A stretch of 64,000 bases of DNA, taken from assembly GCA_964487685.1 (NCBI GenBank), contig CAZASA010000001.1, positions 2,855-66,854 on the forward strand, in the 5' to 3' direction. The stretch is from an uncultured Planctomycetales bacterium. GTDB taxonomy: Bacteria > Omnitrophota > Gorgyraeia > Zapsychrales > Fredricksoniimonadaceae. Numbering within the stretch: position 1 is the first letter of the stretch; every line of letters begins with the position of its first letter. This document shows positions 2 through 14,370 of this stretch, piece by piece. The notes under the pieces were generated by a model. The model saw only the letters and a list, made by a program, of their open reading frames with translations. It did not search any database and was not told the origin of the DNA. The position numbers were made by a program, and so were the translations under genes.

Positions 2-592
2 GCAGGGATCCGGCGTATCGTGTTCTTGTTGGGGTATAAGGCCGATAGTGTGGTCGATCATTACAGGAAGAACAAGATCATAGGCCTGGAAGTTGACTAT
101 TCTATAGGCCAAGAGGAAGACCAGACCGGGCGGCGCCTGATCAATGCCTATGAAAAGTTAGAAGAGAAGTTTTTGCTTTTATATGGTGATAATTATTGGC
201 CGGTCCCGCTAGATAAGATGAGGAAAAATTATGAACGATTACAGGTTCCTTTGACGACAACGGTCTTTAGTAATAAGAACGGGACCGGAGAGTATGGTCT
301 TGGGAATAATGTGATCGTCGATCACGATGGCAGGGTGAAAGCATATGATAAAGGCCGCCGGATGCCCGGCTTAAATGGGGTGGACATAGGTTTCTTTTTG
401 GTCGACAAGAAGGTCATTGACCGTCATGAACCGGGTAATATCTCATTTGAAGAAGTTATATTATCAAAAATGGCAGCCCAGGGAAATTTGGGGGCATTCA
501 TCACGGATGAGCAGTATTACTATATTACGTCAATTGAAGATTTAAGGGGTTTTGAGAAGCTTGTCGGACAAAAGGCGATCGCAGCATTTTAA
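2..592 (+). CDS. Sugar-phosphate nucleotidyltransferase, HddC-like (heptose-1-phosphate guanylyltransferase family); 5' end cut by window edge
   Basis: Frame is open from base 2 (AGIRRIVFLLGYK...), so the GTG at 20 is internal. Nucleotidyltransferase-like body (LLYGDNYW, VDIGFF). Sits beside a SIS isomerase and a GHMP kinase. Confidence 0.65.
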   Translation, partial: AGIRRIVFLLGYKADSVVDHYRKNKIIGLEVDYSIGQEEDQTGRRLINAYEKLEEKFLLLYGDNYWPVPLDKMRKNYERLQVPLTTTVFSNKNGTGEYGLGNNVIVDHDGRVKAYDKGRRMPGLNGVDIGFFLVDKKVIDRHEPGNISFEEVILSKMAAQGNLGAFITDEQYYYITSIEDLRGFEKLVGQKAIAAF

Positions 593-609: not shown

Positions 610-1149
610 ATGGATTATGGCGTTCGGTTGAAGGAATTGGCGGATCATATCAATGCGGTTGACCACCAATCCCTGGATAAAATAAAAGATTTGATCATCG
701 GGGCCTCGAAGCGCGGGGGAAAGGTCATCATTGCAGGTAACGGGGGAAGCGCTGCTATCGCAAGCCATGTGGCTGTTGATCTGACCAAGGCCGCGGGGAT
801 CAGGTCCATTAATTTCAATGAAGCGGACCTCATCACCTGTTTTGCCAATGATTATGGGTATGAGCATTGGGTTGAGAAGGCTTTAGAGTCTTACGCTGAT
901 AGTAAGGACCTTGTTATTTTGATCAGCAGCAGCGGCCAATCTCCCAATATGATCAATGCTGCCCAAAAAGCAAAAGCCATGGCGCTTGTGGTCGTCACCT
1001 TGACAGGCTTTCATGATGACAACAGTTTGAAAAAACTAGGGAATATCAATCTTTGGGTCAATAATTCACACTATAACACCGTTGAAGGAGCGCATCAGGC
1101 ATGGCTCCTGTCGATCGTCGATGAGATCGCGCTACAAAAGGGAAAATAA
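610..1149 (+). CDS. gmhA: Phosphoheptose (sedoheptulose-7-phosphate) isomerase, SIS domain
   Basis: 179 aa. Motifs GNGGSAAIASHVAVDL and ISSSGQSPN are typical of GmhA/SIS proteins. Confidence 0.75.
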   Translation: MDYGVRLKELADHINAVDHQSLDKIKDLIIGASKRGGKVIIAGNGGSAAIASHVAVDLTKAAGIRSINFNEADLITCFANDYGYEHWVEKALESYADSKDLVILISSSGQSPNMINAAQKAKAMALVVVTLTGFHDDNSLKKLGNINLWVNNSHYNTVEGAHQAWLLSIVDEIALQKGK

Positions 1150-1153
1150 TACT

Positions 1154-2185
1154 ATGAAGGTGCTTGTCACAGGCAATCAAGGGTATATCGGCAGTGTTTT
1201 AACAGATATGCTCTTGGAAAAAAAATACGAAGTGGTGGGTTACGATATCGGTTATTACGCGAATTGCCTGATGCACACCTATGACCCTAAGATCAAGCAG
1301 ATTACTAAAGATATCCGTGATATCAACGAAGGTGACATGAAGGGTATTGATGCGGTCATCCATCTGGCGGCCCTTTCCAATGATCCGCTGGGCGAACTGG
1401 CCCCGGGCTTGACGGAAGAGATCAATTTTGGCGGGACGATCAGCGCGGCAGTTGCCGCCAAGAAAGCAGGGGCCAAGAGGTTCATTTATTCCTCGTCACA
1501 GAGTATGTACGGTATTTCAAAATTAGATGCTGAGCTCGAGGAAGATAATAGCGAAAAACATCCTTTGACGGCCTATGCCCGTACCAAATGGGAAGCAGAG
1601 TGTGCCTTGGCCAAGATCGCGGACAAGGATTTTCATGTGATCGCATTTCGGCCTTCGACTGTATTTGGGGCCAGCCCGCGCTTGCGCTGTGATATTGTTT
1701 ATAATAATCTGGTCGCTTGCGCGTATACGACGGGCAAAATAGAGATCAAAAGTGACGGCACCCCTTGGCGGCCGGTGGTCCATGTGAAGGATGTGTCAAA
1801 CGCGTATATCGCCGGGCTCGAGGCGCCCTTGGAACTTGTTTCAGGGCAGGCCTTTAATGTGGGATTACCAAACGGCAATTTTACGGTCAGGGATTTGGCC
1901 CAAGCGGCCCAACGAGCTGTGTCAGGAAGTTCTTTGGTGTTCACCGGCGAGCATGGTAATGATTCCCGGACTTATCGGGTAGGATTTAAGAAAATTTTAT
2001 CGGTACTTAAGGATTATTTCAAACCGGAATGGGACTTGGACCGCGGCGGAAAGGAATTGGTGGATTTTTTTAAGAGGACCAATTTTAAGGAAGAGGATTT
2101 TCGAGGGGCCAGGTGTGTACGTTTAAAACAGATCAAGGCACTTCAGGAGGCCCATAAGATCAATGGAGAACTGCGTATTGTTTGA
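1154..2185 (+). CDS. NAD-dependent nucleotide-sugar epimerase/dehydratase (SDR)
   Basis: The ATG at 1154 gives MKVLVTGNQGYIGS (Rossmann motif). YARTK matches YxxxK. The track start at 1082 overlaps gmhA and looks like an artefactual extension. Confidence 0.8.
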   Translation: MKVLVTGNQGYIGSVLTDMLLEKKYEVVGYDIGYYANCLMHTYDPKIKQITKDIRDINEGDMKGIDAVIHLAALSNDPLGELAPGLTEEINFGGTISAAVAAKKAGAKRFIYSSSQSMYGISKLDAELEEDNSEKHPLTAYARTKWEAECALAKIADKDFHVIAFRPSTVFGASPRLRCDIVYNNLVACAYTTGKIEIKSDGTPWRPVVHVKDVSNAYIAGLEAPLELVSGQAFNVGLPNGNFTVRDLAQAAQRAVSGSSLVFTGEHGNDSRTYRVGFKKILSVLKDYFKPEWDLDRGGKELVDFFKRTNFKEEDFRGARCVRLKQIKALQEAHKINGELRIV

Positions 2186-3413
2186 AACTATTACAAATTG
2201 CCGGGCCTGCGGCCAGGAAGGCCTGGTTGATATCCTGCATTTAGGGGAACAACCGTTGGCCAACGCCTTGGTTCATCCTGGCAATGAAAAAATAAACAAG
2301 GTCCCTCTTTCGACGGCATTTTGCTCAAACTGTGCTCTTTTTCAACTTAAGGAAACAGTCAGTAAGGAAGTCCTTTTTGATCATTATGTTTGGGTGACCA
2401 AAACCGCCAAGGGCGCTCGTGAATATGCTGAAATTTTTACCGACCGGGTAGTCCAACGCGCAGGGCTTAAAGCCAAAGAACTTATCTTTGAAATAGCATC
2501 TAACGACGGCACGATATTAAAGCAGTTCATGGCCAAGGGGATATCCGTGGTCGGGGTTGAACCCGCGAAGAATATTGCCGCCATGGCCTCTCAAGATGGA
2601 GTGAGGACAGAATGCGCGTATTGGAATGTCGCAACAGCCAAACGTTTGGTCGGGCAATACGGCAAACCGAAAATTATTATCGCGCGTAATATAATTCCTC
2701 ACGTTAGCCAACTTCATGATGTGATCGAGGCCATCGCCCAGGCGCTTGGTGATGATGGAGTGGGGGTCATTGAATTTCATAGCGGCACTATCATTGCTGA
2801 GGAACTTCACTACGATTCGATCTATCATGAGCATTTATGTTATTTTACCGCCCATTCGTTGGGATGGTTATTAAAGGATCATGGGTTTTATCCTTTTGCT
2901 GTTGACATAAGTCCGATCAGCGGAGGATCACTGGTACTTTATTTTTCTAAGTCCAAGCGCGCCCCGGAACCCGGCTATCTTGATGTTCTTGAAAAAGAGA
3001 AGAGATCAGGCGTCAATGATCGGGCGGTTTGGGAGAATTTTGCCAAAGACGCCAATATCCATCGGGACAAGACCTTGGGTTTATTGAGCAGTTTAAAGGA
3101 AAAGGTGATCATTGGTTTTGGTTCTTCAGCCCGAAGTTCTACCTATATTAATTTTTGCGGGATAGGGAAGAATTTCTTAGAGGCGATCATAGATAATAAT
3201 CCTTTAAAGCAGGGACTTATGACACCGGCAGGTGATGTGCCTATCGTTTCTTTTGAACAGGGCATGGCCTTAAAACCGGATGTGATCTTTGTGTTGGCCT
3301 GGAATTTTGGACAGGAGATCATGGATGAATGCACGCAACACGGGTTTACAGGGCAATTCATCATGCCATTTCCTAAAGAACCGCGTTTGATCGCGCCATT
3401 AGTGAGGGTATAG
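2163..3413 (+). CDS. NDP-sugar C-methyltransferase (TylC3-type architecture)
   Basis: N-terminal Cys cluster (CRACG ... CSNC). Central class I methyltransferase fold (FEIASNDG). Long C-terminal domain. 416 aa, as in NDP-hexose C-methyltransferases. Confidence 0.7.
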   Translation: MENCVLFETITNCRACGQEGLVDILHLGEQPLANALVHPGNEKINKVPLSTAFCSNCALFQLKETVSKEVLFDHYVWVTKTAKGAREYAEIFTDRVVQRAGLKAKELIFEIASNDGTILKQFMAKGISVVGVEPAKNIAAMASQDGVRTECAYWNVATAKRLVGQYGKPKIIIARNIIPHVSQLHDVIEAIAQALGDDGVGVIEFHSGTIIAEELHYDSIYHEHLCYFTAHSLGWLLKDHGFYPFAVDISPISGGSLVLYFSKSKRAPEPGYLDVLEKEKRSGVNDRAVWENFAKDANIHRDKTLGLLSSLKEKVIIGFGSSARSSTYINFCGIGKNFLEAIIDNNPLKQGLMTPAGDVPIVSFEQGMALKPDVIFVLAWNFGQEIMDECTQHGFTGQFIMPFPKEPRLIAPLVRV

Positions 3414-3417
3414 TGTG

Positions 3418-3972
3418 ATGGAAATAGTGCCTCTAAAAATAGATGGAGCATTTCGGATCGTCTTGGAGGTGCATCGTGATGAACGTGGATTTTTTACCAG
3501 GACCTATGATCAGGCTGAAATGATGAAACGTGGGCTTGTGACGCAATGGGTCCAGGAAAGCCATTCATTCTCGGCGAAAAAAGGGACTATCCGCGGCCTT
3601 CATTTTCAGCTTCCGCCGCAAGCGGAAACAAAATTGGTCAGGGCTGGGCAAGGGAGTATCTTCATGGTTTTGTTGGATCTAAGGGCGGGATCAAAAACAT
3701 TTGGCTCTTGGGAAAGTGCCACTATTTGCATGGAACAGCCCGAACTTTTGTACGCGCCTAAAGGGATCGCCATGGGTATGTGCACCATGACCGATAATTG
3801 TTCATTGCTGTACAAAATGGACACATTTTATGAACCTAAAAATGCGAGGACCGTGCGTTGGAATGACCCGGTATTAGCCATTCCCTGGCCGGTGAAAGAC
3901 CCGGTCATTTCGGATAAAGATAAGGCAGCGCCATTATTAAAAGAATTTCTGGCACATGAAGGGGCCCTATGA
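3418..3972 (+). CDS. RmlC-family NDP-4-keto-sugar 3,5-epimerase (cupin)
   Basis: Motifs DERGFFTRTY and IRGLHFQ. About 184 aa. A GTG at 3415 or the ATG at 3418 are both possible starts. Confidence 0.8.
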   Translation: MEIVPLKIDGAFRIVLEVHRDERGFFTRTYDQAEMMKRGLVTQWVQESHSFSAKKGTIRGLHFQLPPQAETKLVRAGQGSIFMVLLDLRAGSKTFGSWESATICMEQPELLYAPKGIAMGMCTMTDNCSLLYKMDTFYEPKNARTVRWNDPVLAIPWPVKDPVISDKDKAAPLLKEFLAHEGAL

Positions 3973-4838
3973 AGGTCCTTATTACCGGCATCACAGGTTT
4001 TATTGGGCAACGATTGTTTAAGCAGTTGGGTGCCAAGGATGATATCTATGTGATTTGCCGCAAGCCGGTGATAGGCTTCCCTAAGAATGTTTCAGTGATG
4101 GTGGCTGATCTTAATGGGTCAGGGCAGTTATATGATAATTTAAAGATCATCCGGCCTGATGTATGTGTGCATTTGGCTTGGGAAGGGATCCCTGATTACG
4201 GATATATTACTTCCCGGCGGAATTTGGACCATGCATCAGCCCTGTGGCATCATCTGGTGGAAGAATGCGGGTGTTCCAAGATCATTGCGACGGGATCTTG
4301 CTGGGAGTACGGCAAGTCGTCAGGCGTATGCCGCGAAGAGGACCTGGTCACAACAGATTCATATTTTTCCTGGGCTAAGCATTCGCTGTACGATCTCGGT
4401 TCTCTGCTTGCAGTAAAATATGGGATAACTTTTAATTGGGCCAGGATATTTTATGCCTATGGTCCAGGGCAGCGGGGTGGCGCGCTCATCCCCATGATCA
4501 AGGATGCGCTAAAGAAAAATGAACAGCCGAAGATTAAGATGCCGTATAATGCCAATGATTTTGTCCATGTGGATGATATTGCCCAAGCGTTGAATTTGTT
4601 CGTGCATCAGAATATATCCAGCGGGATTTATAATCTTGGTTCAGGCAGATCAACACCGGTTTGGCAGGTCTGTGAATATCTTGAGAAGGCTTTAGGCAGG
4701 CCACCGTTATTTGCAAAGAAATTGCAGGAAGTAAAACAAAAGCCAGTGGTTGATTTTTGGGCGGATATGTCCAAGACATCAAAAGCTTTGGGTTGGAGCC
4801 CAAAAATTGGTATTGAGGAAGGGATAGGTCATCTATGA
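3969..4838 (+). CDS. NAD-dependent epimerase/dehydratase/reductase (SDR)
   Basis: MKVLITGITGFIGQ Rossmann motif. 289 aa. 4-nt overlap with the upstream gene. Confidence 0.75.
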   Translation: MKVLITGITGFIGQRLFKQLGAKDDIYVICRKPVIGFPKNVSVMVADLNGSGQLYDNLKIIRPDVCVHLAWEGIPDYGYITSRRNLDHASALWHHLVEECGCSKIIATGSCWEYGKSSGVCREEDLVTTDSYFSWAKHSLYDLGSLLAVKYGITFNWARIFYAYGPGQRGGALIPMIKDALKKNEQPKIKMPYNANDFVHVDDIAQALNLFVHQNISSGIYNLGSGRSTPVWQVCEYLEKALGRPPLFAKKLQEVKQKPVVDFWADMSKTSKALGWSPKIGIEEGIGHL

Positions 4839-5839
4839 TCATTTCAAGGACACCATTGCGGATGAGTTTTTCAGGAGGCGGTTCGGACATCCCGGATTAT
4901 TATAAAAACCGCCAGGGGGCTGTTGTGTCCACGGCGATTAATAAATATATCTACATCACGGTCAACCAGAAATTCGATGACCTGATCCGTGTCAGCTATT
5001 CGAAAACGGAAAATGTTAAATCACTCGATGAAGTTGAACATAATATTATCCGTGAAGCGTTGAAGCTCGTTGGTATCACTAAGGGCATCGAAGTGGTTTA
5101 TATGGGGGATATTCCTTTGGGGTCCGCGGGGATAGGGCTGGGTTCTTCAAGCAGTTTGGCTGTCGGTGTCCTCAATGCGCTTTATGCCTATCAGGGACGG
5201 CATGTCTCCGGTGATCGCCTGGCCCGTGAAGCCTGTGATATCGAACTGAATATCCTAAAGAACCCTATCGGAAAACAGGACCAGTACATCGCGGCTTACG
5301 GGGGTTTTCAGCATATTCAATTTAACAGCGATGAAAGCGTATTTGTGGACCCGGTCATTTTTCCGTCGGAATCTAAAAAAGCATTGAATGAGAAGCTCCT
5401 GTTGTTTTACACAGGGACCACTCGGATATCATCTTCGATCCTTAAAGAGCAGGGACAAAATACACCCAGGAATTTGGGATATCTAGATGAGATGGTAGCA
5501 CTTTCGCGTAAGCTTTTAAAGAAACTCCAGGCTAATGACTTATATGGTTTCGGGGAGATCCTGCATGAGGGTTGGGAGCTTAAGAAAAAACTTGCCAGCG
5601 GGGTGACCAACAATGAGATCGATCAGTATTACTCCAAAGCATTGAAAGCTGGTGCCGTGGGCGGAAAGCTTTTAGGGGCCGGAGGGGGAGGTTTCCTGCT
5701 TTTTTATTGTGAAGAAGACAAGCAGGCCGGGGTACGTAAAGCACTTGCTGATCTTAAAGAAACTCCTTTTAATTTTGAGCCTCAAGGAAGCAAGATCATC
5801 TATGTCAGTGATTGTGATAAAGAAAGGCCAATAAGATGA
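4835..5839 (+). CDS. GHMP sugar kinase, HddA-like (heptose-7-phosphate kinase family)
   Basis: N-terminus MIISRTPLRMSFSGGGSD. GHMP motif PLGSAGIGLGSSSS. C-terminal GAGGGGF. Confidence 0.75.
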   Translation: MIISRTPLRMSFSGGGSDIPDYYKNRQGAVVSTAINKYIYITVNQKFDDLIRVSYSKTENVKSLDEVEHNIIREALKLVGITKGIEVVYMGDIPLGSAGIGLGSSSSLAVGVLNALYAYQGRHVSGDRLAREACDIELNILKNPIGKQDQYIAAYGGFQHIQFNSDESVFVDPVIFPSESKKALNEKLLLFYTGTTRISSSILKEQGQNTPRNLGYLDEMVALSRKLLKKLQANDLYGFGEILHEGWELKKKLASGVTNNEIDQYYSKALKAGAVGGKLLGAGGGGFLLFYCEEDKQAGVRKALADLKETPFNFEPQGSKIIYVSDCDKERPIR

Positions 5840-6702
5840 AGGTTTTTGTGACCGGAGCCGAAGGATTTGTCGGTAAAAGGCTTGTCGCACGGCTGAAGGA
5901 AAAAAGTATCGAAGTCACGGCCGTTGATATCGTAACGTCACCGGGCTCATCCGTGAAGAGCGCGGATATCAAGTCCCGGAACATAGGTGAACTTATCCCC
6001 GAGGGGGTCGATGCCATTATCCATCTGGCGGGCTTGACCCGTACTCCGGATTGTCAGAATAAAGGCTATGCTTGCTTTGAGGCTAATGTGATGGCCACAT
6101 TAAACCTTATTGATGCGGCCGAGGCCCGTAAGGTTAAGCAATTTATTTTTGCTTCCAGCGAGTGGGTTTACGGTGAATGGAAGGACACGTCACTTATTAA
6201 GAATGAAGACACCCCTTTAGATGGGCATGCATTGAGTTCAGAGTATGCTTTTTCGAAGTTGGTCAGTGAAGTGAATTTGAAACAAAAATATCAATATGGT
6301 TTTTGTCCAACTACTATTTTGCGCTTCGGGATCATCTACGGGCCCCGTGAAAAGAACTGGTCAGCCATTGAGTCTGTTTTTAATGCCGTTAAGACCCAGC
6401 AGGAGGTCAAGGTGGGGTCATTAAAAACAGGAAGATGCTTTATTCACGTCGAAGATATTGTATCAGGTATTGTGGCTTCCTTAGGTCTGCAGGGATTTAA
6501 TATCATCGACCTGCAAGGAGAAAAGCTTATAACCCTCGGTGATATTATTGAAACTTCAAAGAAAATCTTAGGCAAGGACCCGAAGGTGGTAGAAACCTCA
6601 CCGGATAATTATAATTTGCGTAACATCACTAATACAAAAGCAAGGAAAATGCTTGGGTGGAAGCCTGCTTTTGGTCTTCAAGAGGGATTAAAAAGTTTAT
6701 GA
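5836..6702 (+). CDS. NAD-dependent epimerase/dehydratase (SDR)
   Basis: MKVFVTGAEGFVGK Rossmann motif. YAFSK matches YxxxK. Confidence 0.75.
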   Translation: MKVFVTGAEGFVGKRLVARLKEKSIEVTAVDIVTSPGSSVKSADIKSRNIGELIPEGVDAIIHLAGLTRTPDCQNKGYACFEANVMATLNLIDAAEARKVKQFIFASSEWVYGEWKDTSLIKNEDTPLDGHALSSEYAFSKLVSEVNLKQKYQYGFCPTTILRFGIIYGPREKNWSAIESVFNAVKTQQEVKVGSLKTGRCFIHVEDIVSGIVASLGLQGFNIIDLQGEKLITLGDIIETSKKILGKDPKVVETSPDNYNLRNITNTKARKMLGWKPAFGLQEGLKSL

Positions 6703-7625
6703 CCATGGAATTCAAAAAAGAAGTCTTGCATAAATTCCTGCGGCTAAGGATGGCCCAGCTCATCATCAATGAGATGTATAAAAAAGGAGCTTTCAAGGTC
6801 CCGATCCATTTGGCCTTGGGTCATGAAGCGATCGCCATTGCCATAAGTACAGTCATGGGGCCGCATGACCAGCTCGTCCTCAACCACCGTAACATCCATT
6901 ACAATTTGGCCAAGGTGCATTCGTTAAAGTCCGAGATCGATGAATATTTATTGAAAGAAGAGGGCCTGGCAGGCGGCCAGTTAGGTTCAATGAATCTCAT
7001 CAATGAAGGGCAAGGTATTGTTTATTCATCGAGCATTTTAGGGAACAATCTGTCGGTAGCTGCCGGATTTGCCATGGCCAAGAGCATTAAAAAAGATGAG
7101 GGCATTGTCATGGTTGTCACAGGGGACGGGGCTATGGAAGAAGGGACTTTTTACGAAAGTATGGTCTTTGAGAAAAGCAATGGTCTTCCCATCCTCATCA
7201 TTGTTGAGAATAATCAATGGTCGCTGGGGACAAAGATTGAGGAACGTCGTTGCCCCATTGATATCGGCAAATTGGTCGGGGCCCTTGGGATACCCTTTGA
7301 GCAACTGTCTTCCAATGATACCTATGAGTATATTGAAAAGCTAACGGCCTTAAAGGCCCAAGCTTTGAATGAAAAAACACCGGTGTGCATTGAGGTGCCG
7401 CTGACAACCTTGGGATGGTGGCGTCAGAAAACAGATGAATTTCCTGAAGGCAAATTTATCAATTACCATGCCGGCCCCTCACCTTCAGTCAATGAGCAGG
7501 AAGACCCTTACCTGGCGCGCTCTAGCGAAGACCCCTTGTTTGTGCTGGAGAAATATTTCGGTGAAGAGACTATCAGGAAGCTGGCCGGGAACACCCTGGC
7601 CCTTCTTAAAAAGGAATTGGCATGA
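6699..7625 (+). CDS. Thiamine-diphosphate-dependent dehydrogenase E1 component, alpha subunit-like
   Basis: TPP motif GDGAMEEGTFYESMVFEKSNGLPILIIVENN. The ATG at 6699 overlaps the upstream TGA (ATGA). Confidence 0.75.
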   Translation: MTMEFKKEVLHKFLRLRMAQLIINEMYKKGAFKVPIHLALGHEAIAIAISTVMGPHDQLVLNHRNIHYNLAKVHSLKSEIDEYLLKEEGLAGGQLGSMNLINEGQGIVYSSSILGNNLSVAAGFAMAKSIKKDEGIVMVVTGDGAMEEGTFYESMVFEKSNGLPILIIVENNQWSLGTKIEERRCPIDIGKLVGALGIPFEQLSSNDTYEYIEKLTALKAQALNEKTPVCIEVPLTTLGWWRQKTDEFPEGKFINYHAGPSPSVNEQEDPYLARSSEDPLFVLEKYFGEETIRKLAGNTLALLKKELA

Positions 7626-8590
7626 AATACGTTGAATTTATAAATGATATCCTCAAGAAAAAAATATTGGAGCCGGAGCATATCCTTCTTTTCGGGCAGA
7701 ATATCTCAGCGGGCTCATGCATTTCCGGTTTTACGCGGGGGCTCAAGGTCAAGCCTGGCGGACGCATCATCAATACGCCTAACTGCGAGAATACTTTATG
7801 CGGTATCGGCTTTGGCTCCATGATGAACGGTGTACCCGCTATATTTTTTATGAAACAGCAGGATTTTTTATTGCTGGGCATTGACCAATTGGTCAATACT
7901 TATAATATAATCCGGCGAACAACCCCCAAGGCCTCATTTACCATCATGCCGGTGATCGTGGACAGCGGCTATGAAGGGCCCCAGTCCGCGTTGAATAATT
8001 TAGCTGATTTTTGTTCCATTGCCCGTATTCCCGGCTACACCGTCACCAATAAGATCGACGCCCAGGAGATCATCAACAAATATTTGATCGCGCCTGGTTT
8101 TAGGATCATCGGGATCAGCCAGCGATTGTTCAAAACAGAGATCATTGATGTGCCATGTGTCCATATGAATGAGGAGCGCTCGATCTTTCAATATACCAAG
8201 GGAGGGGACGTTACCATCGTCTGTTTTAATTTGTCCCTGCCTCACGGCCTGGAGATCCATCGGCGGATGGTCCAAAAGGACGTGCAGGCCTCAGTTTTTT
8301 CCATTAACGCGGCCATGCCCATCCCATGGGATGAGATCGTTGCCAATGTCCAAAAGACCAAACAGGTGATCATCATTGACGATCTTAAAAGTATCAATGC
8401 TCCCTGGCAAAGTCTATTAAATGCCTTGTACTCCCAAACAAAGATGAAGAGTCCTATCGTTGTTCAGCGGTCTTTTGAGGGGTATTGGTGCCGTCCCCAT
8501 CATGACCAGCTGCAGATGGATTACGATCGTGTCATTTCAGACCTTGATCTACAGAAGGATTTTGTCAGCGGAAAGGGCGGCGCCGCATGA
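7622..8590 (+). CDS. E1 component beta subunit-like (transketolase-type pyrimidine-binding/C-terminal domains)
   Basis: 322 aa. Directly coupled to the alpha subunit. Contains NCENTLCGIGFGSMMNGVPAIFFMKQQDFLLLGIDQLVN, an E1-beta-like core. Confidence 0.65.
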   Translation: MKYVEFINDILKKKILEPEHILLFGQNISAGSCISGFTRGLKVKPGGRIINTPNCENTLCGIGFGSMMNGVPAIFFMKQQDFLLLGIDQLVNTYNIIRRTTPKASFTIMPVIVDSGYEGPQSALNNLADFCSIARIPGYTVTNKIDAQEIINKYLIAPGFRIIGISQRLFKTEIIDVPCVHMNEERSIFQYTKGGDVTIVCFNLSLPHGLEIHRRMVQKDVQASVFSINAAMPIPWDEIVANVQKTKQVIIIDDLKSINAPWQSLLNALYSQTKMKSPIVVQRSFEGYWCRPHHDQLQMDYDRVISDLDLQKDFVSGKGGAA

Positions 8591-9030
8591 TCACACAATT
8601 AAGGCATGTGGGGGTGGTGGTGAGCAATTTAGAAAAAAGCCTGCATTTTTACAAGGATTTATTAGGTTTTAAAATAAGAAAGGAAATGGAAGAAGAAGGC
8701 CCTTATATTGACGCTATTTTGGGATTGAAAAATGTCCGCTTAAAAACGGCCAAATTAATGCCTCCTCCGGGAGGGGGTGGTGTGGAGCTTCTCTATTATT
8801 ACTCACCCACATCCCCGCAAAGAGCCCCCTGTGCCATTCATGAGAGGGCGATCACCCATTTCGCCTTGACCATCGAGAACTTGGATCAGGAATATCACCG
8901 TCTCTTGGGCCAAGGGGTCAAATTCATTTCTTCTCCCCAAATTGCACCTGACGGGGGAGCCAAGGTCGTTTTTTGTCTTGACCCCGACGGGAATTACATT
9001 GAATTAACCGAAGAACTTCGTAAGAAATAA
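8587..9030 (+). CDS. VOC (glyoxalase/bleomycin-resistance/dioxygenase fold) family protein
   Basis: HVGVVVSNLEKSLHFYKDLLGF at the N-terminus and DPDGNYIEL near the C-terminus. Confidence 0.7.
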   Translation: MITQLRHVGVVVSNLEKSLHFYKDLLGFKIRKEMEEEGPYIDAILGLKNVRLKTAKLMPPPGGGGVELLYYYSPTSPQRAPCAIHERAITHFALTIENLDQEYHRLLGQGVKFISSPQIAPDGGAKVVFCLDPDGNYIELTEELRKK

Positions 9031-9039
9031 AGGAAACGG

Positions 9040-9981
9040 ATGGTCCAAGCCTCAAAAATCTGGTTAACAGGGTCACGGGGTTTCATCGGCAGGCCATTGG
9101 CCAAGGCATTGAGAGAGGCGGGTGTTGACCTGATCTGTTTTACTCCCAAGCCCAAAGGTGCCAGCGGTCATTCAACCCCAGCATCACCGGTGGAATTGGA
9201 TTTTTTGAGCCCGGAGGATATTAAGGATAAAGCGGCGCATTTAGGGCTGCCGGATATTTTTATCCACCTGGGCTGGGGCGACGTATCACGTCCGGAGCTT
9301 GATGTCCATTTGACGGAAGGTGTTGCGAGCGGGAAAAACTTAATTGAGACCTTATTTAAGCTGGGGGTGAAAAAATTCTTATTGACCGGATCGATCAGCC
9401 AGTATGGCGGCCGCGTCGGGATTCTTTCTGAGGGTATGGAACCTGGCCCTAGATTAACGAATTATGCCAAAGCAAAGAGTGAAGTTGAGCGATTCGGTTT
9501 ACAAGCCGCCAAAATTTATGGGGAAACATTCATTTGTGTGCGGATCCCCTGGGCTTTTGGGGCAGGCCAGCGGCAAGGGTCCCTGATCAATGATCTATTT
9601 GCGTCCTATATTAAAGGGACAGACGTCAGCTTGACCCCTTGTGAGCATTATAGAGACTTCATCCATATGATCGACGTTGTCGAAGGCTTAAAACGGATCT
9701 CTTATGTTGATGAATCTGGCATTATCAATTTGGGCAGCGGCAAGGTCGTTTTGATGAAAGATTATGTCAGCATGTTTTGGAAAAATCTGGGCGGCGGTAT
9801 GGACAGGTTGAAGTTCGGTGCCAGGCCTTTGCCTGCCAATGAGCCTGAACAGCCTAAAAGTTATTTTGATATTGCGCGTTTGATCAGGTTGACCCAATGG
9901 CAGCCGGCGCTCACTTTGGAAGAAGGCATTATAAAAACCATCGAGGATTTGAGATCACAAACGGAAAATATACATGCCTGA
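9040..9981 (+). CDS. NAD-dependent epimerase/dehydratase (SDR)
   Basis: IWLTGSRGFIGR Rossmann motif. YAKAK matches YxxxK. Confidence 0.75.
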   Translation: MVQASKIWLTGSRGFIGRPLAKALREAGVDLICFTPKPKGASGHSTPASPVELDFLSPEDIKDKAAHLGLPDIFIHLGWGDVSRPELDVHLTEGVASGKNLIETLFKLGVKKFLLTGSISQYGGRVGILSEGMEPGPRLTNYAKAKSEVERFGLQAAKIYGETFICVRIPWAFGAGQRQGSLINDLFASYIKGTDVSLTPCEHYRDFIHMIDVVEGLKRISYVDESGIINLGSGKVVLMKDYVSMFWKNLGGGMDRLKFGARPLPANEPEQPKSYFDIARLIRLTQWQPALTLEEGIIKTIEDLRSQTENIHA

Positions 9982-10945: not shown

Positions 10946-11728
10946 ATGAAATTGTCAGATCCAATAATGAAGTTAGTCAGAAAGTATTTAGGGGTTGAAC
11001 AACGCCGCGCTTTAAGGATCATCCTCGCCAATATATTCCCCTGGGACCTTAACAAGCTTGCTTTGATCTACGGCTCGGACAAGTGGGGTGGCCATTATTA
11101 TACTTCTCATTACCATGAACATTTCCATAAATTAAGGAATAAAAAATTAAAGATCCTGGAGATCGGAGTTGGCGGCTATAAAGACCCGCATTATGGCGGG
11201 GCATCGCTCAGGATGTGGAAGAGGTATTTCCCCCAAAGCTTGATCTATTCCATTGATATCTATGATAAAAGCCCCTTGCAGGAAAAACGGATAAAGATTT
11301 ATCAAGGCAGTCAGGACGACGAGGTTTTCTTAAGGAAAGTGGCTGATGAGGCTGGTCCTTTTGATATTATTATTGACGATGGCAGCCACATTGTCAGCCA
11401 TATACTTAAGTCGTTTAGGACCCTGTTCCCATTGATGAACGATGGCGGGATATACGCCATCGAAGATACTCAGGAATTTTATTGGCCAAGTCTGGGAGGC
11501 AACAGTGAAAATCTGGATGACCCAATGTCTTCAATGGCTTTCTTCAAGAAATTGACCGATGGGTTGAATTATCAAGAATATGTATTGCCGGATTATGTTC
11601 CTACTTATTATGATAAAAATATCGTATCCATGCATTTCTATCACAATCTTTTAATTATGCATAAAGGCCACAATAATGAGCCGTTATTCCCAACTGACCA
11701 TCCAAGACTTGTTGCCCAACGCCAATAG
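10946..11728 (+). CDS. Class I SAM-dependent methyltransferase, TylE/MycE-like sugar O-methyltransferase type
   Basis: Motifs KILEIGVGG, GGASLRMWKRYFP, IIIDDGSH and GGIYAIED. Confidence 0.55.
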   Translation: MKLSDPIMKLVRKYLGVEQRRALRIILANIFPWDLNKLALIYGSDKWGGHYYTSHYHEHFHKLRNKKLKILEIGVGGYKDPHYGGASLRMWKRYFPQSLIYSIDIYDKSPLQEKRIKIYQGSQDDEVFLRKVADEAGPFDIIIDDGSHIVSHILKSFRTLFPLMNDGGIYAIEDTQEFYWPSLGGNSENLDDPMSSMAFFKKLTDGLNYQEYVLPDYVPTYYDKNIVSMHFYHNLLIMHKGHNNEPLFPTDHPRLVAQRQ

Positions 11729-11737
11729 GAGCTTTAT

Positions 11738-12577
11738 ATGTCAATGATCGAAGTTTTGCTGGATAAATTGGTCCTAAATTCTTGGCCATTACGGCGGGTT
11801 TTAGGCAAGAAACTTATTAAGAAATTCCAGATAGGCAGCTATGAATGGCGGTTAAGGATGGGCACCATCGATCGTCCCTATTATGGTTATTGTGTTTATA
11901 ATGCGGCCTTTTTAGCAAAAAAGTTAAAGCTTAAAAAAATAAGTGTCATCGAATTCGGCGTATTTAAGGGTAAGGGACTGCTTAATCTTGAATATCACGC
12001 CAATGAAATTACGAAATTACTGGGAGTGGAAATTGATATTTATGGTTTTGACACCGGAGAAGGCTTGCCGGATCCCCTGGATTATAGGGACCTTCCTTAT
12101 CATTGGGAAAAAGGTTTTTTTAAAATGGATGTGCCCTTACTCAAAAGCCAGTTAAAGAAATCCAAGCTTATCCTGGGGAACGTCAAGGACACTTCAAAAG
12201 AATTCTTTAAAAAATATGATCCTGCTCCCATAGGAGCTGTCCTCTATGATTTTGATTTTTATTCATCGACGGTGGAAGCGTTAAAAATGCTTGAAGCCGG
12301 GGATAAATATTATTTACCCCGGGTTTTTTGTTATTTTGACGATACCATGGGTAATGAACTGGAACTTTATAACGATTGCACTGGACAAAGATTGGCGATC
12401 AACGAGTTCAACCAAGCCCATCAAGATATCAAGTTAGGCATTCCGTATTATCTTTATGGGAAGAAATTCATCGAGAACTGGTATTATCAGATATGGATAG
12501 GCCATTTTTTCAAGCATAGCAGGTATAATGATTTTGTAAGCGGGCAGCAGGTCGATGCCCAAGAAAAACAGGGGTGA
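11738..12577 (+). CDS. TylF-like (macrocin O-methyltransferase fold) protein
   Basis: VIEFGVFKGKG (SAM loop-like). LYDFDFYSSTVEALKML resembles the D-x-D-x-Y-x-S-T block of the TylF family. Confidence 0.45.
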   Translation: MSMIEVLLDKLVLNSWPLRRVLGKKLIKKFQIGSYEWRLRMGTIDRPYYGYCVYNAAFLAKKLKLKKISVIEFGVFKGKGLLNLEYHANEITKLLGVEIDIYGFDTGEGLPDPLDYRDLPYHWEKGFFKMDVPLLKSQLKKSKLILGNVKDTSKEFFKKYDPAPIGAVLYDFDFYSSTVEALKMLEAGDKYYLPRVFCYFDDTMGNELELYNDCTGQRLAINEFNQAHQDIKLGIPYYLYGKKFIENWYYQIWIGHFFKHSRYNDFVSGQQVDAQEKQG

Positions 12578-12580
12578 TTG

Positions 12581-13465
12581 ATGAAAATACTTTTAACAGG
12601 GGCTGCCGGGATGCTGGCGGCGGATGTGGTGCCGCAATTAAAGAAAAATGGATTTGAGGTATTGGGTTTCGATATCAATCAGCGGCTGCCGGATATCGAA
12701 AAGCTCGATATTACTGATAAAGAAGCAGTGTTCAACATGGTCCAACGTGTAAAGCCGGATTATATTTTCCATCTGGCCGCGGAAACGGATGTTGATCGTT
12801 CTGAAAAAGACCCTGACCATGCCTTTAAGGTCAACACGATCGGCACAGAGAATATCGCCCTGGTTTGCCAGCAACTGCGCGTTAAACTTCTTTATATCAG
12901 TACCGCCGGTGTTTTTTTCGGGGACAAGCAAGAGCCGTATACTGAGTTCGATATACCAAACCCGGCCAATGTTTACGGTGTCAGCAAACTGCAAGGGGAG
13001 ATCATTGTCCGAAACCTGCTAAGCGAGTATTTTATTGTGCGGGCCGGCTGGATGGTGGGCGGATGGGAGATCGATAAGAAATTTGTTTATAAGATCGTGC
13101 AGCAAATAAAAGAGGGGAAGACAGAGCTTAAAGTGGTCGCAGATAAATTCGGGAGTCCTACCTTTACAAAAGATTTTGCCAAAAACCTCGTCGAATTGGT
13201 CAAGACCGGGCGTTTTGGAATTTACCATATGACCAATAAGGGATCAGGGTCCCGTTATGATATAGCTGTCAAGATCGTGGAATTCATGGGCCTTAAAGAT
13301 AAAGTCACTGTGACGGCCATTAATTCAGCTCAATTTCCTCTGCCAGCACCCAGGGCACGCTCTGAAATGATGCGCAATTATAAATTGGACCTGATTGGAT
13401 TAAACCTAATGCCTCATTGGGAGAGGTCTTTGGAGGAATATATACGATTGAACAAGGACAGATGA
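12581..13465 (+). CDS. RmlD-family NDP-4-keto-6-deoxyhexose reductase (SDR)
   Basis: MKILLTGAAGMLA, LDITDKEAV, NVYGVSKLQGE. The TTG at 12578 or the ATG at 12581 are both possible starts. Confidence 0.7.
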   Translation: MKILLTGAAGMLAADVVPQLKKNGFEVLGFDINQRLPDIEKLDITDKEAVFNMVQRVKPDYIFHLAAETDVDRSEKDPDHAFKVNTIGTENIALVCQQLRVKLLYISTAGVFFGDKQEPYTEFDIPNPANVYGVSKLQGEIIVRNLLSEYFIVRAGWMVGGWEIDKKFVYKIVQQIKEGKTELKVVADKFGSPTFTKDFAKNLVELVKTGRFGIYHMTNKGSGSRYDIAVKIVEFMGLKDKVTVTAINSAQFPLPAPRARSEMMRNYKLDLIGLNLMPHWERSLEEYIRLNKDR

Positions 13466-14370
13466 GCAAAGTCAGCGTCATCGTTCCGGCTTTCAATAAA
13501 GCGGAATATACCCGTCGGACCATCGAAAGTGTTTTGGCACAGACATATCCTGATATTGAGATCATCGTGGTTGATGACGGTTCAACGGATGGGACAGCTG
13601 CTCTTCTGGCTGGATATGGCAGGCGCATCAATTATATCTTAAAGGCCAATGGAGGTGCTTGTTCTGCCCGTAATGAAGGGATCCGAAGAGCCAGGGGTGA
13701 ATATGTGGCATTTCTTGATTGTGATGACCTTTATTGCACCGACAAGGTCCAACGCTGCGTCGATCATTTGGAAAGGAACCCGGGGTTCGGCTTCGTTTAT
13801 ACGGCAGTCTATTTCATTGATGAGGCTGATAAGACCGTCGGCCTTTATGATCATCCAAAGAGCCGTGAAGGCTGGATCGCTTCCCATCTGATCTTGGGGA
13901 ATTTTATTTGTAATTCAACGGTGCTCGTGAAAAGATCTGTTTTGCAAAAGGCAGGCTTTTTCGATGAAAAGATATTTACACCCGCTGATTGGGATATGTG
14001 GTTACGCTTGTCCGAGGTAGCACAAGCCGGATATTTACGTGAACCATTAACAAAATATCGCGTGACCGATAACTATACTTTTAACCGGTTAGACTTGGCC
14101 CGACCGGAAGAAGCCTATGTTTTGGAGAAATTCTTTGATGGCCATCCGTCACAGGGGTATTTAAAACAGCGGGCTTTTTCAAATTATCATTTACGTTTTT
14201 CTTACTGCGCGTATATAAAGAACGATCTTTCGGGGTTCTGGTCTGAATGCAGGATGTCGTTGAAATTGCTTCCTTGGAATATGAAAACGTTGGCTGTATC
14301 GCTACTTGCTGTTATCATGCCTCAATGGCTTAAAAGAATACTGGAAAAGAAAATCTTAAGGAAAGGATAA
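13462..14370 (+). CDS. Glycosyltransferase family 2
   Basis: The ATG at 13462 (ATGA overlap) gives MSKVSVIVPAFNKAEY. Also VDDGSTDGT and LDCDD. Confidence 0.8.
   Translation: MSKVSVIVPAFNKAEYTRRTIESVLAQTYPDIEIIVVDDGSTDGTAALLAGYGRRINYILKANGGACSARNEGIRRARGEYVAFLDCDDLYCTDKVQRCVDHLERNPGFGFVYTAVYFIDEADKTVGLYDHPKSREGWIASHLILGNFICNSTVLVKRSVLQKAGFFDEKIFTPADWDMWLRLSEVAQAGYLREPLTKYRVTDNYTFNRLDLARPEEAYVLEKFFDGHPSQGYLKQRAFSNYHLRFSYCAYIKNDLSGFWSECRMSLKLLPWNMKTLAVSLLAVIMPQWLKRILEKKILRKG

Follow-up and report, generated by a model that had tools for sequence, protein, structure and literature searches.

The 64,000-nucleotide stretch of DNA analysed here (hereafter the window) comes from an uncultured Planctomycetales bacterium (NCBI GenBank assembly GCA_964487685.1, contig CAZASA010000001.1, positions 2,855 to 66,854 of the forward strand). 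Twelve plus-strand genes between positions 20 and 9981 of the window form one tightly packed operon, in which most junctions are four-nucleotide overlaps or gaps of a few bases. Amid genes for sugar-modifying enzymes, the operon encodes an adjacent pair of proteins resembling the alpha and beta subunits of E1, the thiamine diphosphate (ThDP)-dependent component of pyruvate dehydrogenase (PDH) and related complexes. Here we describe this E1-like pair, the dispersed family to which it belongs, and its candidate role in attaching a two-carbon (C2) unit to a nucleotide-activated heptose.

The E1 pair is translationally coupled to sugar genes on either side. The stop codon of the upstream gene, which encodes an extended short-chain dehydrogenase/reductase (SDR) that we call SDR3, lies at 6700–6702 (TGA) and is overlapped by the ATG of E1-alpha at 6699. 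An ATGA at 7622–7625 (gcATGAaa) joins E1-alpha to E1-beta, and another at 8587–8590 (gcATGAtc) joins E1-beta to a gene for a VOC (glyoxalase-fold) metalloenzyme. The original prediction for this DNA, made from the sequence before any database search, had named the E1-alpha, E1-beta and VOC genes together with their four-nucleotide overlaps, all of which we confirm; the C-methyltransferase that it placed in the same locus is likewise real (Table 1).

Table 1 Genes of the E1-containing operon, followed by further features of the window. Positions are those of the window.
Feature	Position	Strand	Match or remark
Sugar-1-phosphate nucleotidyltransferase, 5' end cut by window start	20–592	+	Probably HddC-like guanylyltransferase
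SIS-domain isomerase, GmhA-like (sedoheptulose-7-phosphate isomerase)	610–1149	+	Top NCBIfam match TIGR00441 gmhA, 5.5e-23, 81.7 bits against a cut-off of 209
Extended SDR, SDR1, probable nucleotide-heptose C4-dehydrogenase	1154–2185	+	Top solved relative 6vo6/6vo8, 1.3e-33
NDP-sugar C-methyltransferase	2163–3413	+	Pfam Methyltransf_13 2e-16, Methyltransf_14 3.9e-36
RmlC-type cupin 3,5-epimerase	3415–3972	+	Pfam dTDP_sugar_isom 2e-56; NCBIfam rmlC 153.7 bits against a cut-off of 155.75
Extended SDR, SDR2, probable keto-reductase	3969–4838	+	Pfam Epimerase, GDP_Man_Dehyd; PDB relatives include GDP-6-deoxy-4-hexulose reductase
GHMP kinase, HddA-like (heptose-7-phosphate kinase)	4835–5839	+	Top NCBIfam match HddA, 1.6e-42, 146 bits against a cut-off of 600
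Extended SDR, SDR3, gene linked most tightly to the E1 pair	5836–6702	+	Stop overlaps E1-alpha start
E1-alpha-like ThDP-binding subunit, 308 residues, divergent clade	6699–7625	+	Pfam E1_dh 2.1e-27
E1-beta-like subunit, 322 residues	7622–8590	+	NCBIfam PDH E1 beta 4e-15
VOC (glyoxalase-fold) metalloenzyme, 147 residues	8587–9030	+	Pfam Glyoxalase 5.3e-20
Extended SDR, SDR4	9040–9981	+	Pfam Epimerase 1.5e-22
Open reading frame, 260 residues, in the glycan operon	10946–11728	+	No Pfam match; S-adenosylmethionine (SAM)-methyltransferase-like pattern EIGVGGY...IIDDGSH
Open reading frame, 279 residues, adjacent to the preceding one	11738–12577	+	No Pfam match; homologues in two family loci (L043, L047)
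RmlA-type thymidylyltransferase, 192 residues	14838–15416	+	About 290 residues expected; covers rmlA profile positions 1–192 of 286; looks C-terminally truncated
RmlA-type thymidylyltransferase, 245 residues	18018–18755	+	Full length by Pfam (NTP_transferase profile positions 2–240 of 245)
Open reading frame, 498 residues	31200–32696	+	No Pfam match; interleaved with Opp-type peptide ABC transporter permease/ATPase genes
Open reading frame, 596 residues	34168–35958	+	No Pfam match; interleaved with the same transporter genes

Both proteins are recognisable, if distant, relatives of E1. The Pfam E1_dh match of E1-alpha spans profile positions 8–222 of 300 only, its highest NCBIfam score, 132.6 bits, is with PDH E1 alpha (cut-off 393.85), and its other Pfam matches are to DXP_synthase_N and TPP_enzyme_C. 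A Pfam scan of E1-beta found no Transket_pyr domain and only a sub-threshold match to Transketolase_C, and the NCBIfam PDH E1 beta profile scored 55.5 bits against a cut-off of 321. The protein does, however, match PDB chain 1um9_B over residues 3–255 (3.7e-13), and hhalign aligned a profile of the 55-member beta family with standard E1 beta over 306 columns (probability 99.8%, E = 1.7e-27). Judged by these profile comparisons, the 322-residue product belongs to E1 beta despite its strong divergence.

We searched six-frame translations of the window and of related loci with phmmer, using E. coli AceF and Lpd and two rhizobial E2 proteins as queries. At E ≤ 1e-3, neither the 64 kb of the window nor any related locus yielded an E2 or E3 homologue, a result that covers contigs and not whole genomes; the same search recovered the E2 genes of two positive-control loci (L065 and L067). 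The statement of the original prediction that the window holds neither partner is thus borne out, and it extends to the orthologous loci.

The family represented by this pair is spread over a wide range of organisms. More than 120 alpha relatives, with 54–100% identity, occur in metagenome-assembled genomes (MAGs) labelled Pirellulaceae, Omnitrophota, Chloroflexota, Dehalococcoidia and archaeon, and a scan of one genome per species yielded 58 loci. Carriers include Planctomycetes, Omnitrophota, Saccharibacteria and other Patescibacteria, Nitrospirae, Chloroflexi, Acidobacteria, Lentisphaerae, several proteobacterial classes, Magnetococcales, a cyanobacterium, a Prochlorococcus single-cell genome, and Thaumarchaeota including Nitrosopumilus; Magnetospirillum sp. 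SS-4 and Jiella sp. LLJ827 are carriers without a MAG label. For the beta subunit, 98 representatives (50% identity clusters) were detected at E ≤ 1e-30 among 1.84 billion, implying that the family is rare yet very widely dispersed. In the closest locus (L006, from an uncultured Planctomycetales bacterium), the alpha subunit is 80% identical and gene order is that of the window up to the first glycosyltransferase, where the L006 contig ends.

To follow the neighbourhood of the pair, we counted genes in 32 loci, from about a dozen lineages, that extend at least 8 kb upstream and at least 5 kb downstream, combining searches with the window proteins and clustering of all open reading frames. Besides E1 alpha and E1 beta (32/32), the GHMP kinase and SDR3 were each present in 29 of these loci, followed by the nucleotidyltransferase (25/32), the RmlC-type epimerase (24/32), SDR2 (23/32), the C-methyltransferase (21/32), SDR1 (19/32), the SIS isomerase (15/32) and the VOC protein (3/32). 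Further recurrent genes encode a CmcI-type O-methyltransferase that is not in the window (22/32), a small cupin (14/32), a B12-radical-SAM protein (12/32), a classical SDR (11/32) and a DegT aminotransferase (7/32). The beta gene follows the alpha gene wherever the contig extends beyond alpha, and an SDR3 ortholog (200–380 bits) lies directly upstream of E1 alpha in most loci. Downstream, the VOC–SDR4 pair recurs in L006, L019 and L029, and SDR4 directly follows E1 beta in L022 and L028. The linkage to sugar genes that the original prediction expected of related genomes is strongly conserved across phyla and both domains.

Some loci depart from this arrangement. In L047 (9899–20100), unlike all other loci, E1 alpha and E1 beta are ~4 kb apart, and two extra short E1-beta-like fragments lie ~5 kb further downstream. 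Genes for B12-binding radical-SAM proteins (12/32) and SPASM radical-SAM proteins (8/32), neither of which is in the window, recur directly downstream of E1 beta (L004 at 11886–14139, L013, L017, L025, L026, L037, L042, L051 and others), which may point to additional C-methylation, or to radical chemistry of another kind, on the same sugar. The full cassette of E1-like and heptose genes is found in L030 and L039 (Thaumarchaeota/Nitrosopumilus) and in L062 (Prochlorococcus sp. AG-424-E18), and its presence in abundant marine archaea and in Prochlorococcus suggests that a surface-glycan module has spread horizontally between domains.

For phylogenetic placement, reference E1 pairs were gathered by plasmid tblastn and by a protein-database search with a Streptomyces alpha subunit; AviB1 itself was not among the references. 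Plasmids yielded no close family members, as all 356 tblastn matches were below 35% identity, and these matches served as outgroups and for finding pairs from Azospirillum and Streptomyces. The references comprise catabolic plasmid pairs adjoining E2 genes (L065, L067 and L072–L076), a Thermus pair annotated acoA with a neighbouring E1 beta, a Haladaptatus pair, and an E1 pair of Streptomyces albogriseolus beside a DrrAB-type transporter (L066). The Streptomyces alpha subunit matches TxnB3 of S. bottropensis (66%), a Kibdelosporangium protein (65%) and an S. rochei protein (73%); deletion of txnB4 abolishes the C2-branched sugar of trioxacarcin (PMC5659172).

In distance-based neighbour-joining trees with 100 bootstraps, the window family, the TxnB3-type clade, and the union of TxnB3-type with Azospirillum pairs were each recovered in 100/100 replicates. 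The window family grouped with TxnB3-type pairs in 6/100 and with catabolic E1s in 27/100. The window alpha subunit is 24–27% identical to TxnB3-type proteins (TxnB3, Kibdelosporangium, S. rochei) and 27–28% identical to E2-linked E1s, and the beta subunit shares 17–20% with TxnB3-type proteins and 15–20% with all proteins outside its own family. Such low identities, together with low bootstrap values for either grouping, set the pair apart, and in our trees it is a separate deep branch that belongs neither to the catabolic E1s nor to the AviB/TxnB3 clade. Of the kinship drawn by the original prediction, which had likened the pair to AviB1/AviB2 of the avilamycin cluster, the separation of the pair from catabolic E1 stands, but membership of the AviB/TxnB3 type does not.

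The Azospirillum pairs are of interest in themselves. On two plasmids (L064, 9001–12339; L071, 8962–13159), a TxnB3/AviB-type pair, 42–47% identical to the actinomycete enzymes, adjoins genes for a DegT aminotransferase and an NAD(P) oxidoreductase next to glycosyltransferase genes, with no E2; GT41 and HAD genes lie near the A. lipoferum pair. These loci are candidates for the synthesis of an amino-branched sugar in a plant-associated Gram-negative bacterium that is available in culture.

The cofactor machinery of E1 is retained in the window family. In the alpha subunit, the ThDP/Mg motif (G142-D143-G144...E170-N171-N172, within GDGAMEEG at residues 142–149 and IVENN at 168–172) is invariant across the family. 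In the beta subunit, Glu56 is invariant in the family and in all outgroups, and Phe82 is conserved in the family; by alignment these are the equivalents of E59 beta and F85 beta of G. stearothermophilus E1p, which function in cofactor activation and in stacking of the pyrimidine ring, respectively (PMC2663715).

A further active-site residue is absent. H128 beta of the G. stearothermophilus enzyme is in contact with pyruvate and donates a proton for the reductive acetylation of lipoate, and has been described as 'conserved in all known E1s'; an H128Q variant kept wild-type activity in a 2,6-dichlorophenolindophenol (DCPIP) assay, taken as enamine formation, with complex activity below 5% (PMC2663715). 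Beta residues 119–125 read G-x-Q-S-x-x-N in 53/55 members of the window family, which lack an equivalent of H128 beta, and the remaining two (L041 and L043) read G-P-H-S, with the histidine at position 121. While hhalign sets Ser122 opposite H128 beta, the minority variant, with its histidine at position 121, suggests Gln121 as the true equivalent. Under either alignment, the histidine has been lost in the window family and, if Gln121 is its equivalent, the family naturally bears the exchange by which enamine formation is uncoupled from the acylation of lipoate. TxnB3-type and Azospirillum beta subunits retain the histidine, and the loss is therefore specific to the window clade. The alpha subunit also carries a family-specific insertion of 13–16 residues, preceding His257 and beside the loop in which standard E1s carry H271 alpha; this residue corresponds to His257 in the MAFFT alignment and to Lys244 in the hhalign one.

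We noticed one alpha-subunit signature shared with sugar-branching enzymes. GDG-x-x-E-E-G, which was derived in the present analysis and is not a published criterion, is found in every family sequence with a detectable motif (49/49 and 115/115), in 115/121 TxnB3/AviB-type proteins and in both Azospirillum pairs. It is found in none of seven E2-linked E1 alphas (0/7), nor in the Thermus or Haladaptatus alphas, and human PDHA1 reads GDGAANQG at the same motif.

The sugar genes around the pair point to a nucleotide-heptose pathway, probably one for GDP-heptose. A heptose enzyme is the top NCBIfam match for the SIS isomerase and for the GHMP kinase, and HddC is a close second for the nucleotidyltransferase, whose full-length copy of 242 residues on the same contig (L001) scores 101.9 bits with mannose-1-phosphate guanylyltransferase and 94.8 bits with HddC (cut-off 300), both below curated cut-offs. 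The solved relatives of SDR1 are headed by a wide margin by 6VO6/6VO8, which we take to be structures of the heptose C4-dehydrogenase Cj1427. Cj1427 yields a 4-keto-heptose that is then the substrate of epimerases and reductases in Campylobacter jejuni (PMC10680097), and SDR1 would, by this resemblance, probably make a 4-keto-heptose intermediate. No HAD phosphatase (GmhB) was seen among the window genes scanned; the nucleotidyltransferases of L004 and L005 carry a fused GmhB-like HAD/PNK3P domain, which would complete the four-enzyme GDP-heptose route there. The original prediction spoke of an NDP-4-keto sugar; the genes fit a nucleotide-heptose pathway, with GmhA-, HddA- and HddC-like genes and a probable C4-dehydrogenase, rather than a generic NDP-4-keto-6-deoxyhexose pathway.

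The GDP-heptose pathway of C. jejuni, in which GmhA, HddA, GmhB and HddC are followed by the C4-dehydrogenase Cj1427, the epimerase Cj1430 and the reductase Cj1428, has matching enzyme classes: a SIS isomerase, a GHMP kinase, a nucleotidyltransferase, a C4-oxidising SDR, a cupin epimerase and a reducing SDR, in the corresponding logical order. Unlike the window, it has no ThDP enzyme, no C-methyltransferase and no VOC protein. By its PDB matches, the window epimerase is closer to dTDP-type RmlC than to the C. jejuni heptose epimerases, and all of the window's heptose proteins fall below the curated equivalog cut-offs.

E1-type pairs that act on sugars are known as alphaKADH2 and include AviB1/AviB2 (avilamycin), TxnB3/TxnB4 (trioxacarcin), Pau11/12 = Plm8/9 (paulomycin), KstD7/D8 (kosinostatin) and KbDH-alpha/beta (kibdelomycin). 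Addition of a pyruvate-derived C2 unit has been shown in vitro for KbDH-alpha/beta, the branch ketone then being reduced or transaminated, and E1-type pairs branch keto sugars at ring C3 or C4 (PMC12247030); genetic evidence for C2 branching exists for TxnB4, AviB1 and the aldgamycin enzyme. In the window, enzymes that form and use keto sugars flank the E1 pair. By analogy with these systems, we give even odds to the proposal that the pair is an E2-independent ThDP carboligase adding a pyruvate-derived C2 unit to a carbonyl of a nucleotide-heptose. The pair itself most likely forms a heterotetramer of the E1 (alpha2beta2) fold, on a deep branch that had not been characterised before.

Under this proposal, the GmhA-, HddA- and HddC-like enzymes would supply an activated heptose, which SDR1 would oxidise to a keto-heptose, and the C-methyltransferase, the RmlC-type epimerase and, where present, the VOC protein would work on the enolisable keto sugar. 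The E1-like pair would decarboxylate pyruvate to hydroxyethylidene-ThDP and join the C2 unit to a sugar carbonyl, most likely C4, which suggests itself as the acceptor since SDR1 probably generates a 4-keto group. The product would be an acetyl-branched tertiary alcohol, formally a C9 sugar, whose branch ketone would be reduced by a neighbouring SDR or, in other loci, transaminated by an aminotransferase, before the final sugar is built into a Wzy-dependent surface polysaccharide. Donor, acceptor carbon and product are what we infer from this gene set. The acetyl- or hydroxyethyl-branched sugar of the original prediction is supported in part, by the absence of E2/E3, the conserved sugar linkage, and the GDGAxEEG motif common to branching pairs; it must be amended in that the pair lies outside the AviB/TxnB3 clade and the sugar would be a heptose, not a deoxyhexose.

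Several observations weigh against this proposal. Since the family falls outside the clade of bona fide branching enzymes, the analogy rests on context and one motif, not on orthology, and the E2-linked set with which that motif was compared is small (n = 7) and drawn entirely from proteobacterial plasmids. Loss of the beta histidine is no general mark of a carboligase, as TxnB3-type and Azospirillum pairs retain it and, since this residue also contacts pyruvate in the G. stearothermophilus enzyme, the donor could differ here. The heptose-pathway assignments are all top matches below NCBI curated cut-offs. Finally, there are more SDRs (four in the window, 2–4 in most loci) than a single scheme of oxidation, branching and reduction needs, which suggests a second oxidation, possibly at another acceptor position.

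In a variant that would accommodate the surplus, the same carboligase uses a different acceptor: SDR3 would oxidise the heptose at C6/C7 or at another ring position after SDR2 has reduced C4, and the C2 unit would be added there, giving a chain-extended, 9-deoxy-nonose-type sugar or a branch at a different carbon. SDR3 is the most tightly linked gene, present in 29/32 loci and usually directly upstream, and the set for oxidation, epimerisation and reduction is already complete with SDR1, RmlC and SDR2, as in Cj1427/Cj1430/Cj1428. Two oxidations and two reductions would account for the four SDRs of the window. ThDP carboligases also generally take aldehydes more readily than ketones (PMC12247030). 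We consider this variant a serious alternative, yet rather unlikely, as an E1-type pair that extends a sugar chain is without precedent, the alphaKADH2 pairs known so far all act at ring C3 or C4, and whether SDR3 oxidises or reduces cannot be read from its sequence. Less probable still is a different ThDP chemistry, such as decarboxylation of a sugar-borne or free 2-oxo acid without ligation, cleavage of an alpha-hydroxyketone or diketone in the manner of acetoin-cleaving E1s or transketolase, or use of a larger donor than pyruvate. In its favour, the family lies no nearer to one characterised E1 type than to another, the pyruvate-contacting histidine of G. stearothermophilus E1p is replaced, the alpha insertion sits beside an active-site loop, YerE-type enzymes use C4 to C8 donors, and L078, a related heptose/NeuB cluster, contains a split transketolase-like pair (see below). 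On the other hand, no genes for an aldolase or for 2-oxo-acid formation lie alongside, unlike ErwI/ErwJ of the erwiniose cluster; a simple decarboxylase would have no obvious substrate in a nucleotide-sugar operon; and the GDGAxEEG motif points to branching enzymes.

Two further explanations are, in our judgement, very improbable. The top profile matches of both subunits are to the PDH E1 families, as would be expected of an ordinary catabolic E1 (a pyruvate, branched-chain or acetoin dehydrogenase) that has its E2 and E3 encoded elsewhere and sits in a glycan operon by chance. This is countered by scores far under the equivalog cut-offs, by the lack of E2/E3 in 64 kb and in every related locus, by a heptose-gene linkage that is kept across phyla and both domains, by the absence of the lipoate-acylation histidine, and by translational coupling to sugar genes on both sides. 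The strong divergence of the beta subunit, with no Pfam pyrimidine-binding domain and a universal histidine lost, would also suit a catalytically dead pair serving as a scaffold or regulator for the sugar enzymes, an idea we give equally little credence: the ThDP/Mg motif, Glu56 and Phe82 are invariant or nearly so in a family that has diverged to 33–41% identity, indicating purifying selection on catalysis.

The VOC gene immediately downstream of the pair keeps the full metal tetrad H7/E67/H91/E139, aligned to the glyoxalase I ligands. We rejected it as a dedicated partner of the E1 pair: VOC homologues are found in 8/60 family loci only (Planctomycetes, Proteobacteria and Thaumarchaeota, including the archaeal loci L030 and L039), at varying gene positions, and relatives occur in NeuB/CMP-type and non-glycan contexts. 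Its subfamily is small (82 proteins at E ≤ 1e-5). Relatives at 44–54% identity (L077–L079) lie in other glycan loci, between an aminotransferase or SDR gene and a methyltransferase gene, with NeuB, CMP-sugar synthetase, SIS and nucleotidyltransferase-HAD genes as neighbours and this E1 family absent; relatives at 37–39% identity lie in non-glycan contexts. We also considered whether the VOC protein replaces the second cupin epimerase that in other loci is often encoded immediately upstream of E1 alpha, but the difference was not significant (adjacent RmlC-type gene in 0/8 loci with VOC and 16/52 without; Fisher p = 0.095), and the number of cupins per locus did not differ between loci with and without VOC.

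A functional precedent for the VOC protein is SepA of septacidin biosynthesis, a VOC-family, Mn2+-dependent C3 epimerase of a 4'-keto-L-heptose in which two Glu ligands serve as acid and base (PMC9978623). Like SepA, the window VOC is a small protein with a complete His/Glu/His/Glu metal site in a pathway generating a 4-keto-heptose; unlike it, SepA acts on a nucleoside-linked heptose, and the window subfamily also occurs in NeuB/CMP-type loci. The two are likened here by description, not by sequence. By this analogy, the VOC protein is probably an optional module that epimerises or isomerises a keto-sugar intermediate. Because it is accessory and has relatives in NeuB-type loci without the E1 family, a keto-sugar epimerase is more likely than an enzyme that processes the branch. 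The original prediction suggested that the VOC protein could act on the keto/enol intermediate; a keto-sugar intermediate remains its likely substrate, while a part in branch processing becomes less likely.

One locus with a close relative of the window VOC holds a ThDP pair of another kind. In L078 (1–4990), a split transketolase-like pair, consisting of a Transketolase_N/E1_dh protein of 279 residues and a Transket_pyr/Transketolase_C protein of 315 residues, lies between an RmlC-like gene and SIS and nucleotidyltransferase-HAD genes, and the locus also has NeuB and CMP-sugar synthetase genes. Here a second ThDP alpha/beta pair, unrelated to that of the window, has been recruited to a heptose-like pathway.

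Beyond the E1-containing operon, the glycan locus continues to ~24.9 kb with genes for glycosyltransferases, dTDP-rhamnose synthesis, a Wzy-type polymerase, an initiating phosphotransferase and a GDP-mannose 4,6-dehydratase, and is followed by pgk, tpi and peptide ABC transporter genes. It is a Wzy-dependent surface-polysaccharide locus drawing on at least three activated sugars.

Compared with the alphaKADH2 systems, the window shares a two-gene pair free of E2/E3 in a nucleotide-sugar pathway, near enzymes that form keto sugars, epimerise, C-methylate and reduce, together with the GDGAxEEG motif and downstream reductases or aminotransferases that could process a branch ketone. The differences lie in the beta active site, where the TxnB3-type clade retains His and the window family has Gln-Ser; in the alpha subunit, with its extra loop of 13–16 residues and an E1_dh score of 96 bits against 209 for the Streptomyces pair; and in the substrate, a heptose in a surface-polysaccharide locus rather than a deoxyhexose in an actinomycete antibiotic cluster. 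YerE and ErwE (yersiniose, erwiniose) resemble our proposal in chemistry, joining an acyl anion equivalent from a 2-oxo acid to an NDP-4-keto sugar, followed by an NAD(P)H reductase, and in serving Gram-negative surface glycans. YerE is, however, a single-chain flavoprotein with an acetolactate-synthase-like fold, unlike the split E1-type pair of the window, which is without such domains. The E2-dependent E1s (G. stearothermophilus E1p, T. thermophilus 1um9) share the fold, the ThDP/Mg motif, the activating Glu and the stacking Phe with the window pair, which differs in having no E2/E3 and no H128 beta equivalent, and in scoring far under the family cut-offs; identity to them is 22–28% for the alpha subunit and 15–20% for the beta subunit.

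A ThDP E1-type pair acting on a nucleotide-sugar is already known; the clade, its active-site changes, the heptose context and the distribution appear to be new. We found no description of a heptose-linked E1-like clade or cassette in the searchable literature, the list of ~120 alphaKADH2 clusters of Krug et al. 2024 lying outside this comparison. More tentatively than the carboligase assignment itself, we suggest that the cassette might make an undescribed class of C9 sugars (heptose plus C2, C-/O-methylated) on the surfaces of many uncultured bacteria and archaea, among them Nitrosopumilus-type Thaumarchaeota, Patescibacteria and a Prochlorococcus. ThDP enzymes might then have been recruited to sugar branching independently for a third time, after the YerE and AviB/TxnB3 types. 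In a more speculative extension, a second C–C bond, from the new carbonyl to C7, would give caryose-like carbocyclic nonoses.

ThDP-dependent sugar branching has so far been known from two enzyme families, nearly always in antibiotic producers and for a few enterobacterial or mycobacterial O-antigens. If our proposal is true, the clade described here extends this chemistry to heptoses and to a very broad range of environmental bacteria and archaea. Enzymes that form chiral tertiary alcohols on polar substrates are sought as biocatalysts (PMC12247030). Because these proteins are currently annotated as 'pyruvate/acetoin dehydrogenase E1' or 'hypothetical', central metabolism is over-predicted in reduced-genome MAGs, for example those of Patescibacteria. 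With its lost histidine and its EEG motif, the family would also provide a natural test of how a dehydrogenase component changes into a free-standing carboligase.

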